Positions 2,385 through 14,065 of a DNA stretch of 14,065 bases are shown in pieces. A model generated the notes under the pieces. The model did no database searches. It saw only the letters and a list, made by a program, of their open reading frames with translations, and was not told the origin of the DNA. Made by a program: the position numbers and the translations under genes. The stretch spans positions 1-14,065 of the forward strand of contig JBHIAH010000066.1 in NCBI GenBank assembly GCA_046758505.1. The letters are read 5' to 3'. The stretch is from Candidatus Methylomirabilales bacterium (GTDB taxonomy: Bacteria; Methylomirabilota; Methylomirabilia; Methylomirabilales; CSP1-5). How positions within the stretch are numbered: position 1 is the first letter of the stretch; each line of letters starts with the position of its first letter.

Positions 2385-3401
2385 ATGCGTGACCGAATTC
2401 TCAAGGCGGCCCGCAGAGAGCCGGTAGACACGACGCCCGTCTGGATCATGCGCCAGGCGGGGCGGTACCTCCCCGAGTACCGCGAACTCCGTAAAAAATA
2501 CTCGATGGAAGAGATCTGCCGGACCCCGGAGCTCGCCGTGGAAGTGACGCTCCAGCCCCTTCGCCGCTTCGATCTCGATGCGGCGATCCTCTTTTCGGAC
2601 CTCCTCGTTCCGCTCTGGGGGATGGGGGTGTCGTTTGACCTGGTGGAGGGAAAGGGTCCGGTGTTACGAAAGGCCCTCATCCCCCACGATCTCGCGACGC
2701 TGCCTTCCCTCGACCTCACCCGCCTGGACTTCACCTTCGAAGCCATCCGGCTCCTCCGTCAGGCGCTGGATCGCCCTCTCATCGGCTTTACCGGAGGACC
2801 CTTCACCTTCGCCTCGTACTTGATCGAGGGGAAACCCTCTCGGGATTATCCGAAGACGCGCGCTTTTCTCCACACCCACCCTCTGGAGTGGAAGGCCCTC
2901 ATGAAGCGCCTCGCCGAGAATTTAGCACTCTATCTCCAGGCCCAGATCGAGGCGGGCGTGCAGATGGTGCAGGTCTTCGATTCCTGGGTCGGTGTCCTCT
3001 CGCCGGAAGACTTCCGGGAACGCGTGAAACCGCACCTGACCGCCGAGCTCCAACAGGCGGGAAACGGGGTGCCCCGGATTTATTTCAGTACGGCAAGCGC
3101 GCACCTCTTCCCCCAGTTCGCGACCTTGCCCGCAGAGGTGATGGGGGTGGACTGGCGGGTTTCCCTGACGCAGGCACACGGCATGCTTGATCACGCGTAC
3201 GCCATCCAGGGGAACTTGGATCCCATCCTCTTGCTCGGCAACGAAGAGGACCTCTTCGTCAAGGCCGCAGAGATCGTGACAGAAGGCCGGTCTCTCGCCG
3301 GGCACATCTTCAACCTCGGCCACGGCATCCTTCCCCCCACTGCACCGGAGCGGGTAGAGCGCCTGGTGGACTTCGTGCACGCACAAGGAGCACGACGATG
3401 A
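2385..3401 (+). CDS. hemE: Uroporphyrinogen decarboxylase (UroD)
   Basis: PVWIMRQAGRYLPEY, DAAILFSD, LIGF.GGPFT.ASY, QVFDSW, QGNLDP and HIFNLGHG motifs; 338 aa. Confidence 0.97.
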   Translation: MRDRILKAARREPVDTTPVWIMRQAGRYLPEYRELRKKYSMEEICRTPELAVEVTLQPLRRFDLDAAILFSDLLVPLWGMGVSFDLVEGKGPVLRKALIPHDLATLPSLDLTRLDFTFEAIRLLRQALDRPLIGFTGGPFTFASYLIEGKPSRDYPKTRAFLHTHPLEWKALMKRLAENLALYLQAQIEAGVQMVQVFDSWVGVLSPEDFRERVKPHLTAELQQAGNGVPRIYFSTASAHLFPQFATLPAEVMGVDWRVSLTQAHGMLDHAYAIQGNLDPILLLGNEEDLFVKAAEIVTEGRSLAGHIFNLGHGILPPTAPERVERLVDFVHAQGARR

Positions 3402-4321
3402 TCGGTGTCCTGCTTATGGCCTACGGGACCCCCAGGACTCTCGAAGAAGTGGGGGCCTATTTCACCCATATCCGTCGGGGCCGCATACCGGCGGCGGAGG
3501 AAGTCGAGGAGCTCACCGAGCGGTACCGGGCCATCGGCGGGGCCTCGCCGCTGTACCACATCACCGAGGCCCAGGCGAAGGGACTTCAGGAGGTCCTCGA
3601 TCGAAAAGCGCCGGGACGCCTCCACGTCTATCTCGCCATGAAGCATACCCCTCCCTTCATCGCCGAGGTGGCCACGCAGATGATCCGGGACGGCATTCGG
3701 GAGATCGTTGCCCTGGTGCTCGCGCCTCACGAGTCCCGCATGATCATCGACGATTACATGCGGTACGCGAGAGAGGTCCTGGAGGCGCAGCCGGATGTGA
3801 ACGTACACGTCGTCCGGAGCTGGCACCTCAACCCCAAGTACCTCTCTGCCCTCACGCGCAGAATCCAGCGCGAGCTGGCCGCCTTCCCGCGGCCGGGGAC
3901 CGGGCAGACCATGGTGCTCTTTACGGCCCACAGCCTCCCCGAGAAGATCGTCGCCAGGCACGACCCGTATCCGACCCGGCTGGAGGAGACGGCCCGGGCC
4001 CTGGCAGAGCGACAGTCCCTCCGCAACTGGCGCCGGGCGTACCAGAGCGCTGGGAAGACCCCCTTTCCCTGGCTGGGCCCCGACCTCCTCGAGGTGCTGG
4101 AGCAACTTAAAGCAGAGGGACGTTCTCAGGTACTGGTGGTTCCCATCGGCTTTGTCGCCGACCACCTGGAGATTCTGTACGACATCGACATCGAGGCTCA
4201 AGCCAAGGCGCAAGAGCACGGTCTCACCCTCCGACGGACCGAATCCCTGAACACCGACCCCGAGTTCCTCGAGGGGCTGGCGGACGAGGTGCTCCAGCCG
4301 ACAGCCTCCTCACCCCGTTAG
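3398..4321 (+). CDS. hemH: Ferrochelatase, Firmicute-type coproporphyrin ferrochelatase (CpfC)
   Basis: LLMAYGTP, THIRRG, RY.AIGG.SPL, FTAHSLP, QSAG..P.PWLGPD and VPIGFVADHLEILYD motifs. No C-terminal Cys cluster. ATGA overlap with hemE. Confidence 0.95.
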   Translation: MIGVLLMAYGTPRTLEEVGAYFTHIRRGRIPAAEEVEELTERYRAIGGASPLYHITEAQAKGLQEVLDRKAPGRLHVYLAMKHTPPFIAEVATQMIRDGIREIVALVLAPHESRMIIDDYMRYAREVLEAQPDVNVHVVRSWHLNPKYLSALTRRIQRELAAFPRPGTGQTMVLFTAHSLPEKIVARHDPYPTRLEETARALAERQSLRNWRRAYQSAGKTPFPWLGPDLLEVLEQLKAEGRSQVLVVPIGFVADHLEILYDIDIEAQAKAQEHGLTLRRTESLNTDPEFLEGLADEVLQPTASSPR

Positions 4322-4330
4322 GTCTCCTCT
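4254..4330 (+). repeat. Direct repeat copy 1 (3' end of hemH plus 9 nt)
   Basis: Matches 8875-8951 at 71/77 positions without gaps; the first 40 bp (4254-4293) are identical. Confidence 0.95.
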
Positions 4331-4706
4331 CCCTTCCTCTTACTTTTACTCCCCACTTTCGGCTCTCCCCCCCTTCCCTGCCCCCTCCCCTTTGCCACAT
4401 CCTTCTCCGGAAGGCGGTTCAGAATGTTGCCCGGCGCTCATGGCCTTCGCGGGGCATCATCTCCACACTGGGACACTCGTGCCCCACAAAAAACCGTTCT
4501 TACCTCTCGATAATAGTGGGCTGGGCAAAGAACTGCTGTCCCACGAGTGGTACACTTAGAAATAAAGCATCGAGTTTATCCTGAAATTTTCCTGAAAATT
4601 CAAGTAGATACATTCATCCACGGTTCTGGCACTTTTCTCGCACCCAGCGGTCCCACAATCCGGCCCATACGCCTGCTCAGTCCAGCCACAGGGAGAGGGA
4701 GGCTTG

Positions 4707-5616
4707 ATGGATCCGCTCCTCAGGAAGTTAGTATGGCTGGGTATCCTGCTGCTGGTTCTTTTTTTTCGGCCTCATCGATGTGGTGTATCCAGTTCCCTTT
4801 CCCGCCGGACACGCCGACCTTCATACCCACATATGGCTCTTCGCCGCGGTTGCGCTCGGCGCAGCTGGGTTTTGCTTTGCCGTCTGCCGGGCTCTTGCCT
4901 CAAGGAGTGAGGTCGACCGCCAGGTCGCAGTGCTCCAGGAGCAGCAGCGACTGGCCCGTGAGCTCCACGACGATCTGGCCCAGTTGGTAACTTTCTTACA
5001 TATAAACCTCACCGCGTTGGAACGGGAGCTCGGTTCCTCAGGGGACCCAGAACTCAGCAGGCGTGTCAACGAGCTCCTTCTGGCGACTGAAGGCGTTTAT
5101 GACAAGATCCGCGAACTCATCTGTTGCCGGCGCATGGAGGGGGTGTACGGAGAAGGGTTTTCCACAGCCCTCCAGGCTTGCGCACACGAGTTCGCTGTTC
5201 TGACCGGGATTCCGGTCCGGGTTGAGCTCCCCCCCGATGACACAACCCGGATCCAAGGCCTCGTATCCGCGCAGCTCGTCCGAATCATTCGCGAGGCCCT
5301 TCACAACATTTACCGCCATTCTGGTGCCCGTCAAGCCAGGATCTCCGCCGAGGTGACGGATATAGATCTTATCGTCAACGTTTCGGACAACGGGCGGGGC
5401 TTTGAACCCTCGACTGTGGTGGCCCCGTTCAAGCATGGCCTTCAAATCATGCGGGAGCGAGCGGAACTCGTGCGCGGCTCGCTCTGCGTAACGACGGCGC
5501 CGGGCGAGGGGACCCAAATCACGGTGAAGGTGCCGCTGGATCAGGAGAGATCGAAGTGGAACAATCAGTGCGAATCCTGGTCGCTGATGACCACACCCTC
5601 GTCCTCAAGGGGCTGA
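4707..5616 (+). CDS. NarX/UhpB-like sensor histidine kinase (HisKA_3 + HATPase_c), apparently frameshifted at T8 4759-4766 (intact frame 4780..5616)
   Basis: EQQRLARELHDDLAQ H-box, REALHNIYRHS N-box, SDNGRGF, GL..MRERA and PGEGT. GGAGG RBS plus ATG 4707 begins a TM helix in a different frame. Deleting one T joins it to the kinase frame, which is otherwise closed by TAG at 4729. Confidence 0.85.
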
Positions 5617-6236
5617 TCAACCTGCTCTCGGCGGAACCCGGACTCGAGGTAATCGGCGAGGCCGAGACGGGCCGGACGACCCTGGAGAAAACTCGGGACC
5701 TCATGCCGGACGTGGTCCTCATGGACGTCTACATGCCGGACGGGGACGGCATCAAGACCACCCGTCGCCTCAAGGCCGAGTTCCCTTACGTGAAGATCAT
5801 CGTCCTGACCATCGCCGAAGAGGAGAAGATCCTCTTCGAGGCGGTGAAGGCCGGGGCCCGGGGCTATCTCCTGAAAAAGGTCAAGCCCCAGCAGCTCTTC
5901 GACTCGATACGAGGCGTCGCCCGTGGTGAGGCGGCCATTGCCGGCCACCTGGCTGCCAAGCTCCTGGAAGAGTTTGCCCGTCAAAAAAAGGAGGAGGACG
6001 AGAACACCCCGCTGCAGCAGCTCACCTGCCGGGAACGTGAAGTGCTCCAGCTCCTCACCCTGGGGAAGACAAACAAGGAAATCGCAGATAAACTCGGCAT
6101 CGCCGCGAACACGGTGAAGAATCACTTGACGAACATCCTCGAGAAGCTCCACCTACAAAACCGCGTCCAGGCAGCCGCCTTTGCGCTCGAACAAAGGACG
6201 GTTTCCCCCTCCCCTGCCAATCAGCCTGCCAGATAA
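5556..6236 (+). CDS. NarL/FixJ-family response regulator (REC + LuxR HTH)
   Basis: ILVADDH, PDVVLMD..MP, GARGYLLK and LT.RE.EVL.L...G.TNKEIA..L.I...TVKNH..NIL.KL. AGGAG RBS at 5543-5547. Confidence 0.95.
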   Translation: MEQSVRILVADDHTLVLKGLINLLSAEPGLEVIGEAETGRTTLEKTRDLMPDVVLMDVYMPDGDGIKTTRRLKAEFPYVKIIVLTIAEEEKILFEAVKAGARGYLLKKVKPQQLFDSIRGVARGEAAIAGHLAAKLLEEFARQKKEEDENTPLQQLTCREREVLQLLTLGKTNKEIADKLGIAANTVKNHLTNILEKLHLQNRVQAAAFALEQRTVSPSPANQPAR

Positions 6237-6310
6237 GGCCCCGCGGCCCTTCCCTTCTTCAAGGATCCCTGCGCCCGTCTGAGGAAATTTGCCAAGGGGC
6301 AGGCCTCTCT

Positions 6311-6383
6311 AGGAAAAGCAGACTATATCGGATAGCCGCTTTTTCTCGCAAAATTGTGATGTTCGGGGGATAGCGCTTTCTCT
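6311..6383. promoter_or_regulatory. Candidate transcription-factor operator array upstream of the cyc2-like gene
   Basis: GGATAGCCGCTTTTTCT (6330-6346) and GGATAGCGCTTTTTCT (6368-6383) form a direct repeat. AGGAAAAGCAGACTAT (6311-6326) is an imperfect inverted copy. Confidence 0.45.
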
Positions 6384-6585
6384 GGATTTGTCCAATCCTA
6401 GAGGACGAAGCACCCTCTATCGGCCCGGTGCAGGGCAGTGCAAGTCATGCACACCGTTAAAGTCCGTAGGAGAGGCACAGTGGATCCGAGGCAGACGATA
6501 GAGGGGATAGTGAATCAGCAAATAATGAAACCCAGGACGGTGAGAACGAGGAAGTGTGAAACGGCCCGAAGGAAAGGAGGAACGC

Positions 6586-7872
6586 ATGCACAAGAAATGT
6601 CTGATTGTGTTATTCCTCTGTATCCCAGCATTCCTGGTTTTCTCGAAGGAAAGCCAGGCAATGCCGAACTTTGCACGAAAATACGGTGCAGATTGCAGCA
6701 TGTGTCATACGGCGGTCCCCAAGCTGAACAGCCTCGGCTATGAATTCAGGCTGGCAGGTTACAGACTCCCTTCTGGAATAGGGGAAGCGGAAGAAGCTTT
6801 CAAGCTAGGCGATTTCTTTGCGGCAAGGCTTCAAGAGCAGTTCACCTACAAGCACCATAATGACGCAGCACCAGGAAAGGACTTCAACAGCAATCAGCTT
6901 GAATTCAAGGAATTCACTATTTACCCGCTCACCGGCGCTTGGGGCAAATACTTCGCCTCCCTGGGTGAGTTTTCGATGTCGCCTGACGATGTCTTTGAGA
7001 TCGAAAATGCCTTTGTCAGAGGGGTCTATGGGGGTGAGACCGGATGGGCCCAGGCCAGGATCGGTGTTATGCACCCGTGGGAAGGCTTCGGCGCCTCCGA
7101 CAGACCAATTTCACTTTCACGGCCATTGTTTCAAAAGGTCCCGGCAGTGGGATCTCCGTTCTTCCTCTGGAACTTGGATGAAGTGGCTGCCGAGGTGGGG
7201 TATCATTTCGCAAAGACGGAGACCACGGTAGCCGCCCGGGTGAGTAACGGTATTCTCTGGAAAGAAGACGGTTCGGGCAAGGCAGAGCCCGCTCAGGGTG
7301 GTGAGTTAACCAAACCAGGGAATGTCACTGGGCGGAATGACAAGAGCTTCCAGTTCTTTGCGAATCAATTTTTCGCAGAGGAATCGGCTGTGTCGCTCTA
7401 TTTTTACCGGGGTGTAGTTCCCTTCCCCGACCCCAACCACATCCCCGCTGCTCCGGTGACCACCCGTGATACTTTTTGGAGACTTGCAGCCTATGCGAAC
7501 TACTTCGTGTTACCCGAAAAGCTCAATCTCCTTGCCGGCTATGAGCGTGGACACGATTCCCTTGATAATTCGTCGGTGAGCACCCCCGACGGCGCGCAGG
7601 TCGGCTCTCAAGTCGGCAGCAGCGAAGGGGTCTTCGGAGAGGTGAACTTCCATGTAACACCACAACTTGCATTTGCTGCGCGCTACGACTGGTATGACCC
7701 GTCAAAGGATGTGAGTCATAACAGCCAGACCGCCTTCACGTTTGCCGGCAACTGGCGAATCTGGGGAGGGCTACAGTTCATCGGCGAATTCCAGCACAAA
7801 GATGCGGACCGGGCAGCGGGCGGCACAAATAAAGACGACAGTCTCCAAGCACGATTAATCTTTATATGGTAA
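6586..7872 (+). CDS. Cyc2-like outer-membrane monohaem cytochrome c-porin fusion
   Basis: AAGGAGG RBS then ATG 6586. Signal peptide ends SQA, and the mature N-terminus MPNFARKYGADCSMCHTAVPKLNSLGYEFRLAGY fits the Cyc2-type P.FAR.Y...CxxCH...P.L...G..F...GY pattern. Single CxxCH (6694-6708), beta-strand-like body and C-terminal aromatic (LQARLIFIW). Confidence 0.8.
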   Translation: MHKKCLIVLFLCIPAFLVFSKESQAMPNFARKYGADCSMCHTAVPKLNSLGYEFRLAGYRLPSGIGEAEEAFKLGDFFAARLQEQFTYKHHNDAAPGKDFNSNQLEFKEFTIYPLTGAWGKYFASLGEFSMSPDDVFEIENAFVRGVYGGETGWAQARIGVMHPWEGFGASDRPISLSRPLFQKVPAVGSPFFLWNLDEVAAEVGYHFAKTETTVAARVSNGILWKEDGSGKAEPAQGGELTKPGNVTGRNDKSFQFFANQFFAEESAVSLYFYRGVVPFPDPNHIPAAPVTTRDTFWRLAAYANYFVLPEKLNLLAGYERGHDSLDNSSVSTPDGAQVGSQVGSSEGVFGEVNFHVTPQLAFAARYDWYDPSKDVSHNSQTAFTFAGNWRIWGGLQFIGEFQHKDADRAAGGTNKDDSLQARLIFIW

Positions 7873-7886
7873 ACGCATCGTACAGC

Positions 7887-7913
7887 GCCGGGACCTCTCC
7901 GGGGGGCCCCGGC
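7887..7913 (+). terminator. GC-rich hairpin after the cyc2-like gene (possible terminator or stabiliser)
   Basis: GCCGGG...CCCGGC stem extended through one mismatch and a G-U pair, 14 nt after the stop. No immediate U-tract. Confidence 0.35.
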
Positions 7914-8041
7914 ATCCCTCATTTTACCCTCTACTCTTTCACCGCACAATGAGGGGACCATTTCTGTTTATACGACGAACTCAAGAGACCGGGACTGTTC
8001 TCACGAATTATTTGGTACACGATTGGGGGATACGGAAGATC

Positions 8042-8728
8042 ATGAGAACCACAATTGCAATGATTGCGATAATTCTTCTAAGTAGTGTTTTCTTTGTGTC
8101 TGGGACTGCTTTCGGACTCACCACGGATGAGATGATCCAACTCAAGAAAACGGGCGTCCCGGAAAACACGATTCTCTTTATGGTCGAGAACAATTATAAA
8201 GATGTGGACAGGGTGATCAAGTTGAAAGAAGCAGGCTTTAAGGACGAAACGATATTGTCCACCATAAAAAATGATTTGAAGGGCAAACCTGCCACGGGTA
8301 CATCGCAGGAACAAACGGGAAAAGACACTTCTGGCGGCCGTACTGAAATCGAGTCGGCTTCGAGAATTAAGATTCTCTGGTATATCGTCCACAGGGGAGA
8401 TCCTGTTCTGCAAAATAGTCAGACCATCGATGATGCAAGAATTGCTGTGCTGAGCGGCAACCGCATTAAGTTTGAGTGGGATGACAAAGGAGGGCTCGGT
8501 CTTCTCGATGCATTCTATAAGAAACCGTTTAAAAGCCCTTTTTTCTGGGAGATTAACGAAAGCGATAGCCTCGGACACGGGAAGGAGGGATACTCCTATA
8601 TGATCCAGTCAACGGTCAATCACAAAGGAAAACCTGATACCGACGGCTCCCATTACTGGATCCTTTACCTCGACCCGAAGGACACAAAGATCGTTGACTA
8701 CATGAAAGAAAGATTTTCCGGCCAATGA
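8042..8728 (+). CDS. Secreted/periplasmic hypothetical protein
   Basis: Signal peptide MRTTIAMIAIILLSSVFFVSGTAFG. Two tandem short helical repeats (DEMIQLKKTGVPENTILFM / DRVIKLKEAGFKDETILST), a low-complexity linker and a beta-rich C-terminal region. ATG 8042 was chosen because it places the signal peptide at the N-terminus. Confidence 0.7.
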   Translation: MRTTIAMIAIILLSSVFFVSGTAFGLTTDEMIQLKKTGVPENTILFMVENNYKDVDRVIKLKEAGFKDETILSTIKNDLKGKPATGTSQEQTGKDTSGGRTEIESASRIKILWYIVHRGDPVLQNSQTIDDARIAVLSGNRIKFEWDDKGGLGLLDAFYKKPFKSPFFWEINESDSLGHGKEGYSYMIQSTVNHKGKPDTDGSHYWILYLDPKDTKIVDYMKERFSGQ

Positions 8729-8874
8729 TACTCTCCGCGGGCCTCTCACCGAAACATACGCACAAGACGAGAACTTCCATGACCACTACATAGCGGAAAA
8801 ACCTGTCCGAGATTATTGTTGAGGCATTCACCATCCGGCTTGTTCCATCAATTATTCATCCAAATTCCTTATAG

Positions 8875-8951
8875 CCGACCCCGAGTTCCTCGAGGGGCTG
8901 GCGGACGAGGTGCTGCAGCCGACGGCCTCCCCGCCCCATTAGGGCTCCTCT
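8875..8951 (+). repeat. Direct repeat copy 2: orphan hemH 3' fragment
   Basis: Translates DPEFLEGLADEVLQPTASPPH*, versus DPEFLEGLADEVLQPTASSPR* in hemH. The TAG stop is conserved. Confidence 0.95.
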
Positions 8952-9317
8952 TCGCGCGTCTCCTTATTTCCCCCTCTCCCCGATGAGACCACCCCTCCCC
9001 GCGGCCTGCCAATATCGGGACAGACACCTCTCGACCGTCCCAAGCCCTTCCGAATTCGACCCATCGAAGAAGACTCATCAAGAAACTCCCCCCAATCGCA
9101 ACTCCGGAGACATATCAGCAGATCCACCAGACAGGCGACCGGTATCTGGAAAATTCAGCACTTACAATCTCCGCTCCTCTCCTCGTTGCTGCCCAACTAC
9201 CTTTATATATATGACGAGGATCATGTCTGTTTCCAACTCGCATCATTGATTGAGAATCACCGACATCCTAACCTCACCGCAACGGAGCCAAAAGAGCCGA
9301 AAGGTCCATGTGATCTT

Positions 9318-9743
9318 ATGCACCTCAGCCGGGAAAGTGAATACGGACTCAAAGCGATGATCTACCTGGCCCAGCAGCCCCCGGCGACGGTCCTCACCCT
9401 CAACCAGATCGCCGAGGCAGAAGATCTGCCTGTCGGCTTCCTGGCCAAAACCCTTCAGAAGCTCGCACGCCACGGACTGCTCCAGTCCTTCCGGGGCCGT
9501 CATCGTGGATACTGCCTCGCCCGCGACGCCTCGGAAATCAAACTGCGAGAGCTGCTCGAAGCCATCGAGGGGCCCGACCTCTTGCTCCGATGTCTTTTCT
9601 GGGGCCGCCGGTGCGGCGACAGCAACCCCTGCATGCTTCACGCCGGCTGGCGCGAGATCAAACCCCACCTCGCCGTCTTCCTCGAGGCGACAACCCTGGC
9701 CAGCCTGGCCCAGGACGGAGGCAAAGGTGCAGGTTCAATATGA
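9318..9743 (+). CDS. Rrf2-family transcriptional regulator with Fe-S ligands
   Basis: LSRESEYGLKAMIYLA, FLAK.LQ.L...GLL.S.RG...GY.LA and LLEAIEG motifs, with C-x6-C-x5-C-x2-H and terminal TTLA.L. ATG 9318 gives a typical 141-aa length. Confidence 0.92.
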   Translation: MHLSRESEYGLKAMIYLAQQPPATVLTLNQIAEAEDLPVGFLAKTLQKLARHGLLQSFRGRHRGYCLARDASEIKLRELLEAIEGPDLLLRCLFWGRRCGDSNPCMLHAGWREIKPHLAVFLEATTLASLAQDGGKGAGSI

Positions 9744-10724: not shown

Positions 10725-13700
10725 ATGGAGATCACGCGCAGAACCTTCCTCAAGGCCTCCGTGACCGGCGCGGCGACCCTGGTCGCAAAGGATGCGCTCG
10801 CCCTGACGTTCCTCAAGCCCATCGATGTTGAGAATCCCCTCGGTGTGTATCCCAATCGTGGCTGGGAACGGATCTATCGAGACCAGTACCGCTTTGACCG
10901 GAGTTTCACGTGGGTCTGTGGCCCGAATGACACGCATATGTGCCGCCTTCGAGCCTTCGTCCGAAACGGGGTCGTGATCCGTAGTGAGCAAGAGTATTCC
11001 GATGGGCGCCACGGCGATCTCTATGGCAACCAGGCCTCGGTCAACTGGAATCCTCGTGGTTGCTTGAAGGGCTTTACCTTCCACCGACGGGTGTACGGTC
11101 CCTATCGTCTCAAAGGTCCCGTGATCCGCAAAGGATGGAAGGAGTGGGCGGATGCCGGTTTCCCCTCACTCTCGGATCAGCCGGACCTTCGAACACGCTA
11201 CCGCTTTGACGACCGGGGAAATGACGAGTTTGTACGGATCTCCTGGGACGAGGCCTTTCGCTATGCAGCCGAGGGACTGGCGGCGACCGCCACGACATAC
11301 AGCGGCGATGCGGGAAAACGCCGACTGCTCGCGGACGGGTACGACCCGTTGATGCTCACCCACTGGAATGGTGCGGGGACACGGACGATGAAGTTTGGAT
11401 CGAACCTTCCCATCCACGGCATCATCGGGAAGTTCGGGATCTACCGGTTCGCCAACATGATAGGGCTGCTGGACCATCACGTCCGAGGTGTCCCGGAGGA
11501 CAAGGCCATCGGGCCCCGGGATTGGAATGAATACACCTGGCGCGGCGACCAGGCCCCCGGCCAGCCCTTCGTCCATGGCCTCCAGACGTCCGACTGCGAC
11601 TTCAACGATCTCCGCTTCACCAAACTGCACATCCAGGTGGGAAAGAACCTGATCGAGAACAAGATGCCGGATTCTCACTGGATGGTGGAGACCATGGAAC
11701 GGGGCGGCAAGATAGTCGTCATTTCGCCAGAGTACAATGCCCCTGCGACGAAGTGTGACGTCTGGATTCCGGTCCGGCCGGGCCTGTCGGACACCGCCGT
11801 CTTCTTAGGAATCGCCAAGATCCTCATGGACGAGGGGTGGTATGATGCCTCTTTCGTGAAGGAGTTTACCGACCTGCCCCTCCTCGTCCGGACCGACACC
11901 CTCAAGCGCCTCAAACCTCAGGAGATCTTCCCCGGCTATCGGAACCGAGACCTCTCTCGGGGGCCCAGTGTTCGGATCCACGGCCTCACCCCCGCCCAGC
12001 GGGAGATCGTCGGAGATTTCGTCATCTGGGACCAAAAGACCAACGCCCCACAGCCGGTCACCCGGGATGACGTGGGGGCCAAGCTTCGTGCGAAGGGCCT
12101 CGACCCCACCCTGGAGGGAACCTTTCAGGTCCGTACCGTGGACGGCACCCCCCTCGAGGTCATGCCGATCTTTGAGATGCACAGGCGACACCTCCGAGAC
12201 TACGACCTCGAGACAGTCGAGGCGATCTCTGGGGCGAAGAAGGACGTCGTGTATCAGCTCGCGAGGGACATCGCCACCATCAAGCCGGTGGCCATCCACA
12301 TCGGCGAAGGGATCAACCACTACTTCCATGCCACGCTCCACAACCGGGCAACCTACCTCCCGCTGATGCTGACCGGCAATATCGGCCGCCACGGGGCCGG
12401 CACGTTCACCTGGGCCGGTAACTACAAAGGGGCCCTGATGCAGGCCTCATCCTGGACAGGACCGGGCGTCGGTGTATACACCCACGAGGATCCATTTCAC
12501 CCAACCCTGGACGAGCATGCGCGGATCACCCACGCACAGCTCCGGAACACCACTAAAGGGGAGGAACCCTCTTACTGGGGCACTGGGGAACGGATCCTGG
12601 CGGTGGACACTCCGGAGGGCCGCAAGGTTTTCACCGGCGTCTCGCATCTGCCCTGTCCGACCAAGGCCATGTGGTACAACAACGCGAACTTCATCAACCA
12701 GGCCAAATGGGTGTACAACCTCGTCGTACATGTCTTCCCAAAGATCGACATGATCGTCGACCAACAGATTGAGTGGACGGCCTCCGCCGAGTACGCCGAC
12801 CTGGTCCTTCCGGCGAACTCCTGGATCGAGTTCCAGGATACGGAGTGCGCCGGGTCTTGTTCGAACCCCTTCATCCAGGCATGGGGCGGAGACGGGATCA
12901 AACCCCTGTACGATTCGAAGGACGATGCGGCGATCTTCGCCGGTGTGGCTCAGGCCCTGGCGCAGAAGTTCGGGGAGCCGCGGTTCCGCCATTACTGGAA
13001 GTTTGTGTCGGAGCAGAAGGCCGCCGTCTACCTGCAGCGGGTCTTCGACAGCTGCACCACGACGCGAAGCCAGGACGACTCCTACCAAGTCGACAAGCTC
13101 CTCAAGGGCGACTACGGGGGCCCCGGCACCGCCTTGATGCTCTTCCGAACCTATCCCCGGGTTGCCTTCTGGGAACAGGTCCATGACAACGTTCCCTTCT
13201 ACACCGACACGGGACGCCTCAACGCCTACTGCGATCTCCCGGAGGCCATCGAGTACGGCGAGAACCTCATCGTTCACCGGGAGGGGCCCGAGGCAACGCC
13301 GTACCTGCCGAACGTCATCGTCTCGCAGAGCCCCTACACCCGGCCACGCGACTACGGTATCCCGCTCGAAGCGATGGAGGCCGACCTCCGCATGGTCCGG
13401 AACATCAAGATGTCCTGGGCCGAGGTGCAGAAGACCGTCAACCCCCTCTGGGCCCGCGGCTATCGCTTCTTCTGCTCGACCCCCAAGAGCCGACACTCGA
13501 CCCATTCCTCCTGGTCCACCGTGGACTGGAACTGGATCTGGTCCTGCAACTTCGGCGATCCGTACCGGATGGACAAGCGCGCGCCGGGGGTCGCCGATCG
13601 GCAGATCCAGATGAATCCGCAGGCGGCCAAGGACCTCGGATTGCATGACGGCGACTATGTCTTCGTGGATGCCAATGTGGCCGACCGGCCCTATAAGGAC

Positions 13701-14065
13701 TGGAATCCCTCCGATCCACGCTACCGTGCGTTCCGGTGCATGGTGCGGGTCAAGTTCAATCCGGCCCTCCCCTACACCTTCAGCATCCTCAAGCACACAG
13801 GCTGGATCGCAACCGAGCGAAGTGTCCGTGCCCACGAGAGCCGACCGGACGGGAGGGCGCTGTCCCCCGAGACGGGGTACCAGGCGTCCTATCGGTATGG
13901 CTCCCAGCAATCCATCACCCGAGGCTGGCTCCCGCCCATGCATCAGACCGATACGTTGTTCCACAAGAAGACTGGGGCCATGGGCTTCGTGTTCGGTTTC
14001 GATGTGGACAACCATGCCGTCAACACGGTCCCCAAAGAGACGCTGGTCAAGATCACCAAGGCCGA
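10725..14065 (+). CDS. nxrA: Tat-exported type II DMSO-reductase-family molybdoenzyme alpha subunit, Nitrospira/anammox-type NxrA-like; truncated by window edge and not in ORF track
   Basis: MEITRRTFLK Tat signal; FS0 motif C65-x3-D69-x3-C73-x39-C113; CLKGFTFHRRVYGPYRL; YTWRGDQAPG (Asp275, putative Mo ligand); GKNLIENKMP; TPKSRHSTHSSW. The same frame ends VNTVPKETLVKITKA at the edge (~1113 codons). The middle of the gene was not checked codon by codon. Confidence 0.88.
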   Translation, partial: MEITRRTFLKASVTGAATLVAKDALALTFLKPIDVENPLGVYPNRGWERIYRDQYRFDRSFTWVCGPNDTHMCRLRAFVRNGVVIRSEQEYSDGRHGDLYGNQASVNWNPRGCLKGFTFHRRVYGPYRLKGPVIRKGWKEWADAGFPSLSDQPDLRTRYRFDDRGNDEFVRISWDEAFRYAAEGLAATATTYSGDAGKRRLLADGYDPLMLTHWNGAGTRTMKFGSNLPIHGIIGKFGIYRFANMIGLLDHHVRGVPEDKAIGPRDWNEYTWRGDQAPGQPFVHGLQTSDCDFNDLRFTKLHIQVGKNLIENKMPDSHWMVETMERGGKIVVISPEYNAPATKCDVWIPVRPGLSDTAVFLGIAKILMDEGWYDASFVKEFTDLPLLVRTDTLKRLKPQEIFPGYRNRDLSRGPSVRIHGLTPAQREIVGDFVIWDQKTNAPQPVTRDDVGAKLRAKGLDPTLEGTFQVRTVDGTPLEVMPIFEMHRRHLRDYDLETVEAISGAKKDVVYQLARDIATIKPVAIHIGEGINHYFHATLHNRATYLPLMLTGNIGRHGAGTFTWAGNYKGALMQASSWTGPGVGVYTHEDPFHPTLDEHARITHAQLRNTTKGEEPSYWGTGERILAVDTPEGRKVFTGVSHLPCPTKAMWYNNANFINQAKWVYNLVVHVFPKIDMIVDQQIEWTASAEYADLVLPANSWIEFQDTECAGSCSNPFIQAWGGDGIKPLYDSKDDAAIFAGVAQALAQKFGEPRFRHYWKFVSEQKAAVYLQRVFDSCTTTRSQDDSYQVDKLLKGDYGGPGTALMLFRTYPRVAFWEQVHDNVPFYTDTGRLNAYCDLPEAIEYGENLIVHREGPEATPYLPNVIVSQSPYTRPRDYGIPLEAMEADLRMVRNIKMSWAEVQKTVNPLWARGYRFFCSTPKSRHSTHSSWSTVDWNWIWSCNFGDPYRMDKRAPGVADRQIQMNPQAAKDLGLHDGDYVFVDANVADRPYKDWNPSDPRYRAFRCMVRVKFNPALPYTFSILKHTGWIATERSVRAHESRPDGRALSPETGYQASYRYGSQQSITRGWLPPMHQTDTLFHKKTGAMGFVFGFDVDNHAVNTVPKETLVKITKA

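Follow-up and report, generated by a model that had tools for sequence, protein, structure and literature searches.

Probable additive displacement of the hemH 3′ end by a 4621-bp regulatory and porin block in a Candidatus Methylomirabilales genome

Results

The hemH gene and the duplication of its 3′ end

The window, a stretch of 14,065 nucleotides in which all features described below lie on the forward strand, is the entire contig C66 of the Candidatus Methylomirabilales genome G000 (2.99 Mb, 149 contigs, 96.8% complete) and carries, behind the ferrochelatase gene hemH, a 4621-bp block of regulatory and porin genes bracketed by two copies of the hemH 3′ end. We describe this locus and its relatives and argue that host recombination at the end of hemH probably brought the block in. 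The gene itself (3398..4321, 307 aa) is intact, matches both PF00762 and TIGR00109 above cut-off, as expected from an earlier sequence-only reading in which hemH was said to be restored by the insertion, and ends a run leading from a hemQ-like gene to hemE and hemH, the order of which is kept in congeners.

Alignment of the two members of the direct repeat, 4254-4330 and 8875-8951 (spacing 4621 bp), bore out what had been read from the letters alone: 71 of 77 positions are identical, a perfect core of 40 bp occupies 4254-4293 (codons 286-299), and all six mismatches lie 3′ of it, in the 37-bp diverged tail that holds the stop codon. They fall at 4294 (CTC/CTG) and 4303 (ACA/ACG), at 4310 and 4312 (together Ser/Pro), at 4317 (Arg/His) and at 4323, the last being 3′ of the TAG, which is kept in both copies. 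The tails thus encode two residue differences, and the right copy (8875..8951) has the same 23 codons in a frame open to the TAG, without a start codon. No other repeat in the window is as strong; the local alignment score was 124, against a maximum of 40 in shuffled sequences (n = 20). Beyond 4330 the copies match weakly (20/45), and on the other side the 15 bases just 5′ of the right core (8860..8874) match hemH imperfectly, at 9/15 compared with 14/45 further out; this patch may be either a microhomology junction or decayed homology. The GC profile, suggested earlier as a check, gave 0.545 between the copies and 0.636 and 0.629 in the flanks. A scan of the window for tRNA genes and Rfam families gave no match.

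The non-coding leader that follows the left copy (4331..4706) is a poor match to every congener spacer; what it does match is paralogous DNA within G000, on contig C17. We infer that the diverged tail of the left copy is the incoming allele. The DNA that follows the right copy (8952..9317) is homologous to the spacers of three congeners, G003, G006 and G009 (0/300 shuffles for each), and because this native-type hemH-rrf2 spacer follows it, we regard the right copy as the displaced native end of hemH. The spacer contains a conserved dyad box (~9209-9250), putatively Crp/Fnr-like, ahead of the rrf2 regulator gene (9318..9743; PF02082), and the window closes on a nxrA/narG-type gene (10787..14065).

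An empty site and a second insertion in congeners

Among 13 congeners searched, hemH was present in 11 and enough downstream DNA for assessment in 8. The rrf2 gene follows hemH in 5/8 of these, after 0.2 to 11 kb of varied genes: G003, which is another species and not a strain of the same one, has the empty site, with hemH followed directly by a spacer of ~190 bp and rrf2; in G008 one small gene lies between the two, in G009 a low-GC gene of the nitronate monooxygenase family, in G005 4.1 kb and in G006 10.9 kb. No rrf2 was seen within the hemH-downstream DNA examined in G001, G007 and G012. The native spacer behind the right copy and the empty site of G003, for which the sequence-only reading had advised looking in relatives, uphold its placement of the insertion at the hemH 3′ end. 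Its ancestral hemH-rrf2-nxrA order stands for the first two genes, on the G003 order and the spacer homology, and fails for the third, which varies among congeners, these carrying differing respiratory modules after rrf2. Nor is the cargo common to all relatives, a finding that would have spoken against insertion: searched as DNA, the leader, the porin gene and the gene for the unknown protein described below had no match in 14 other genomes of the family.

In G006 an independent event has occurred at the same gene. Its hemH is followed by an unrelated 10.9-kb cargo of respiratory and regulatory genes and then by its own hemH-end duplicate (~126 bp, compared with 77 bp here), in which 73 perfect bases are followed by 11 mismatches in 45 (P ~1e-5 for uniform mismatches). 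The perfect core corresponds to window positions 4180-4252 and has no overlap with 4254-4293, and the 15 bases at its junction match imperfectly, at 10/15. The two tails of G006 are 66% alike. Those of the window are 93% alike from codon 286, and at most 78% like the tail of any congener. A 10-mer shared by the sequences 5′ of the two right copies was considered as a conserved element end and rejected as chance (127/300 shuffles).

A possible further instance is seen in G009 and the metagenome locus L053, where the spacer box occurs on both sides of an inserted low-GC gene (10998-11039 and ~12300 in L053); this could be a weaker third case, or simply two regulator sites. Separately, rrf2-headed respiratory modules stand in tandem in G006 (three, C3:71769-105127) and in G009 (C163 and C282), and such stacked modules are possibly a second additive array.

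Gene-end copies elsewhere in the genome

Similar anatomy is found at genes unrelated to hemH in G000. The last 64 bases of a gene for a metallo-beta-lactamase-fold hydrolase are perfectly copied around a Phd/PIN toxin-antitoxin pair, forming an islet of 891 bp (C11:36370-37337, locus L126) that is missing there in all three congeners with the hydrolase gene. Downstream of polB lie four 3′ remnants of that gene (C6:61019-68949), 93, 79, 76 and 73% identical, with four different start points and polarised in that identity drops with distance. Copies of 5′ ends occur as well, at a yifB/comM-like gene (220 bp, the cargo including an IS200-like transposase) and at merR, and two copies of a tRNA end flank 1.6 kb of DNA. 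In all, 26 exact repeats of at least 30 bp were found in G000, many of them paralogues or dispersed repeats, and 15 pairs were inspected. Further two-copy repeats, with perfect cores of 24-227 bp, enclose 0.4-4.4 kb of DNA and involve the starts of genes, leader regions and one tRNA end (C3:72164-77033, C18:30936-32779, C48:18155-18933, C10:45417-46376, C93:1612-2458 and C27:16109-17797).

Integrases and the exchange of DNA between species

Gene-restoring duplications of a target 3′ end, with mismatches on the 3′ side, lower-GC cargo and an empty site in relatives, are features of integrase islands, and the block shares each of them. The sequence-only reading accordingly took hemH for an unusual att site and offered mobilisation in trans, loss of the integrase or homologous recombination as modes of entry. 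In its integrase form, the proposal is that a circle bearing a replacement 3′ end entered at an attB near hemH codons 285-288, through a tyrosine integrase that either was supplied in trans or has disappeared since. The classic anatomy with its sharp 5′ edge speaks for it, as do a C17 remnant of hemH (see below) that begins within ~15 bp of the same place, congeners with up to 24 PF00589 matches, and a genome that is only 96.8% complete and in 149 contigs.

The recombinases found in G000 are XerD, an XerC-like gene and two C-terminal integrase scraps, with no match to a resolvase or large serine recombinase. As the sequence-only reading had noted, no integrase lies in the cargo, whose four proteins matched no recombinase family; the search it proposed for integrases beside hemH fragments found none, every PF00589 match listed for 14 genomes of the genus lying on a contig other than that of hemH. 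Likewise, viral contigs contained neither the hemH-end pattern nor the peptide. We noted a 363-aa open reading frame near dnaA and a kinase-regulator-porin module in G003 (C52; L122:15632-16723) that looks tyrosine-integrase-like by eye and is absent from the PF00589 matches listed. Against a fixed att site stand also the non-overlapping core of G006, where perfect homology extends 73 bp upstream of the supposed attB and would not be needed by an attP, and the like anatomy at polB and the hydrolase gene, where scattered break points would call for several lost integrases. We consider an integrase unlikely, and the view of hemH as an integrase-type att site finds no support here; of the modes of entry offered, recombination fits best.

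Means for such recombination are predicted to be present. The comEC and dprA families occur in G000, suggesting competence, and the nxrA/narG gene from 10787 is ~97% identical at the DNA level to that of L053 (in a comparison including L054 and G009:C163), whereas the rrf2 region and flanking genes of L053 are 65-81% identical and its hemH protein 80%. This contrast marks a recent exchange of the nxrA allele between species; recombination thus carries kilobases of DNA from one species to another at this locus. In G000 we found neither MutS1 nor MutL; there was a single match to MutS_V, and two more, both weak, were NucS-like. Loss of mismatch repair was considered as a cause and rejected, as G006 has MutS1; the gene occurs in 8/41 genomes and is patchy in the genus (6/13 congeners).

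Because the break points vary, several unrelated genes are targets, no integrase is at hand and DNA recombines locally between species, we favour, with a probability of about 0.6, additive displacement of the hemH 3′ end by host recombination at a short anchor, and not insertion at a fixed att site.

Content and origin of the block

The first cargo gene encodes a HisKA_3/HATPase sensor kinase (4707..5616). A shift of one base at a T8 run (4759-4766) divides it into an N-terminal hydrophobic piece from 4707 and a main frame at 4762-5616. In one of four sequencing runs (X4) a unitig lacks one base at 4759, which joins the two frames; the shift may be a strain difference or a slippage switch. A response regulator of the NarL/LuxR type follows (5556..6236; PF00072 and PF00196, with NarL the best NCBIfam match, below cut-off).

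The third gene (6586..7872, 428 aa) encodes a predicted Cyc2-like monoheme cytochrome-porin, so assigned by its motifs. Like Cyc2, it has a signal-like N-terminus, the Cyc2 motif before CxxCH, PxL after it and a porin-like body, and it agrees with the definition given in 10.1101/228056 in motif, single CxxCH, PxL and a length >365 aa; the match to porin families is weak, and no relative in the PDB was found by sequence. Its GC at third codon positions is 0.60, its nearest relatives are 69% identical and a full-length match occurs in only 1/150 other genomes of the class, so that the porin is likely foreign. The last gene (8042..8728, GC 0.45) encodes an unknown protein with a hydrophobic N-terminus and no family match, whose relatives are 59% identical at most; it had no relative in the genome-contig collection and no usable Atlas match. 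Porin and unknown gene have a joint GC of 0.51 and are adjacent also in G019, a genome of another family. Four Cyc2-like porin paralogues were seen in G000 (window 6586-7872, C17:19650-20864, C17:25314-26651 and one on C141); the three that belong to the C66-C17 respiratory cluster each follow a kinase-regulator module.

The kinase-regulator part has a GC of 0.60, near that of the host, and at the DNA level is most similar to a stretch of C17, in the same genome. There, ~27 kb on, the stretch 17639-18856 (L132:2640-3857) consists of a decayed, inverted hemH end, the leader, a kinase stub and a regulator, the regulator being 79% identical and the leader matching in 253/404 aligned columns (63%). 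Since this paralogue opens with what is left of a hemH end, followed by the leader, the order hemH-leader-kinase-regulator has long been present in the lineage. As a side observation, the remnant has a tail like that of the right copy and a leader like that of the left, as an older excised-circle junction would.

The near-host composition and the C17 match, together with a region rich in paralogous kinase-regulator-porin and rrf2-headed modules and two tails that resemble each other more than they do the tail of any congener, would also fit a purely local origin. In that case a stretch starting within hemH would have undergone duplication or rearrangement inside the respiratory gene cluster, a C17-type kinase-regulator paralogue and the porin pair would have taken the place of its interior, and gene conversion would have kept the cores alike. 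We find this improbable. At the identities given, the C17 paralogue is far older than a 40-bp perfect core, the dissimilar tails of G006 beside its 73-bp core call for a second allele, and the hydrolase gene encloses a toxin-antitoxin pair that is plainly foreign.

Read support for the junctions

Four DNA runs hold the stretch, all from one study and possibly from the source DNA; no RNA run holding it was listed. In 4/4 runs the cargo and both junctions form a single 4.6-kb unitig, with a depth (31, 22.6, 28.4 and 17.8) about the same as in the longer unitigs of the flanks (31-32.5, 22.4-23.5, 29-30 and 14-20), so that the drop in coverage over the insert which the sequence-only reading suggested looking for is not seen. 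The ends of contigs C66 and C17 overlap by 55 bp, more than the length of the core, and congeners align across the join. An assembly artefact, in which the repeat would have fused sequences from two populations into a chimera, is highly improbable, given these data and the like anatomy at hemH in G006. What can be said for a chimera is that the genome is fragmented, that the unitig bordering the left core on its 5′ side exceeds the cargo in depth in 4/4 runs (38.2, 26.3, 44-47 and 21.5), and that unitigs built from short words break at the 40-bp core, at which a linear insert and an empty site plus a circle look alike.

Discussion

Under additive displacement, the donor would be a close relative in which hemH is followed by the leader, kinase and regulator and perhaps also by the porin and the unknown gene. 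Its DNA would have been taken up, probably by natural transformation, the incoming hemH end pairing with the resident gene and the far end being joined inside hemH at the microhomology patch. The donor DNA may have closed into a circle and integrated by one crossover, or it may have bridged sister chromosomes; both routes would leave hemH whole with the last codons of the donor, shift the former tail further downstream together with the spacer and rrf2, and look the same in the present data. The recombination itself is probably of a known sort.

Several observations weigh against this interpretation. The postulated donor allele, hemH followed directly by the leader, was not found in the 14 family genomes or in 80 metagenome loci. 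The hemH duplicate was found in only 1/8 assessable congeners (G006) and in none of the 80 loci, of which 18 are at least 77% identical and 5 of those have 10 kb downstream; in one of the five, the G006-like L095, a copy would fall just outside the flank. At 77 and ~126 bp the anchors offer little length, and part of it has diverged; such DNA is a poor substrate for RecA. Genome-wide, gene-end copies lie downstream in 23 cases and upstream in 18, without polarity, although this tally of unfiltered frames is uninformative. The remaining points are those that lend the integrase its appeal. The perfect cores of G000 and G006 abut at 4253, the one ending at the base adjacent to that at which the other begins, within each pair the 7 bp at 4256-4262 are identical, and in the left copy a 6-bp imperfect dyad encloses a 7-bp spacer (4249-4267), resembling a tyrosine recombinase site, with identity beginning one base before that spacer. 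Against such weight, the dyad follows from conserved codons, is not in the right copy and is one of four such dyads in the 110 bp scanned. A perfect 5′ part with a diverged 3′ part is typical of integrase att sites, and the polarity in G000 alone is unremarkable given a faster-changing tail (P ~0.10). From integrase islands in general the locus differs in that no integrase lies in or near the element and that the two hemH events have no common perfect core.

Closer parallels are found in displacement without integrases. For Rhs genes, Jackson et al. (2009, PMC2935791) describe tip displacement with variable fragment length and propose a circle and single crossover; for type VI secretion system (T6SS) effectors of V. 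cholerae, homology-facilitated illegitimate recombination (HFIR) has been proposed for a like pattern (PMC5361080). As in these Rhs and T6SS cases and at MafB C-termini, DNA would have recombined into the 3′ part of a gene, which stays whole while the old end is shunted downstream, with variable fragment lengths and no integrase. In contrast to Rhs, hemH is a housekeeping anchor whose tail has no variable domain, the cargo consists of unrelated regulatory and respiratory genes instead of a new toxin tip and immunity gene, and there is one tandem remnant (plus the inverted, decayed one) and no long array; capture at hemH may thus resemble Rhs displacement in its working without being a member.

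In E. coli, recircularised donor DNA and one crossover gave duplications of 109-950 bp (PMC3240628), and transforming DNA can bridge chromatids (interchromatid bridging, PMC3784515). With HFIR and insertion-duplication, the locus would have in common one homologous and one microhomology-type junction, an anchor duplication of at least ~100 bp and the use of host enzymes only. It departs from classical HFIR in that the recipient end and spacer are kept and duplicated and none is deleted, and from the E. coli work in the length of its perfect cores, which at 40 and 73 bp fall short of 109-950 bp, the route here being a presumed one. The microhomology feature itself consists of imperfect matches (9/15 in G000, 10/15 in G006), which could be decayed homology. 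The locus also recalls the hotspots of horizontal gene transfer (HGT) without mobile elements, attributed to recombination in the core genes on either side (Oliveira et al. 2017, PMC5635113), in its variable content between fixed neighbours, recombining flanks and competence genes; unlike those, the cargo was added with a duplicated gene end and not swapped by double crossover. Literature searches on integration at hemH, or at a ferrochelatase gene by that name, found nothing relevant, island databases and supplements, which may list hemH, being outside their scope; those for displacement at housekeeping genes likewise found nothing relevant.

A wider proposal, which we offer as doubtful, is that housekeeping genes of the genus (hemH, polB and the hydrolase gene) acquire foreign DNA behind their ends by a general, integrase-free capture that copies 40-220 bp of the target each time, has the hemH end as the standing entry for respiratory modules and is perhaps driven by a dedicated recombination factor cutting near codon 285. 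Recombination through the core would bring hemH, still whole, back next to its native spacer; no such event was observed among the unitigs, in which a circle would not show. Since island finders rely on integrases and tRNA sites, additive capture at the ends of housekeeping genes would go uncounted, and the combination of perfect core, diverged tail and variable break point is a countable signature for gauging the amount of accessory DNA that arrives independently of mobile elements. If our interpretation is right, tip displacement would extend from toxin arrays to ordinary genes, and in this lineage such capture would feed a respiratory cluster of nitrate/nitrite oxidoreductase, oxidases and Cyc2-like porins.

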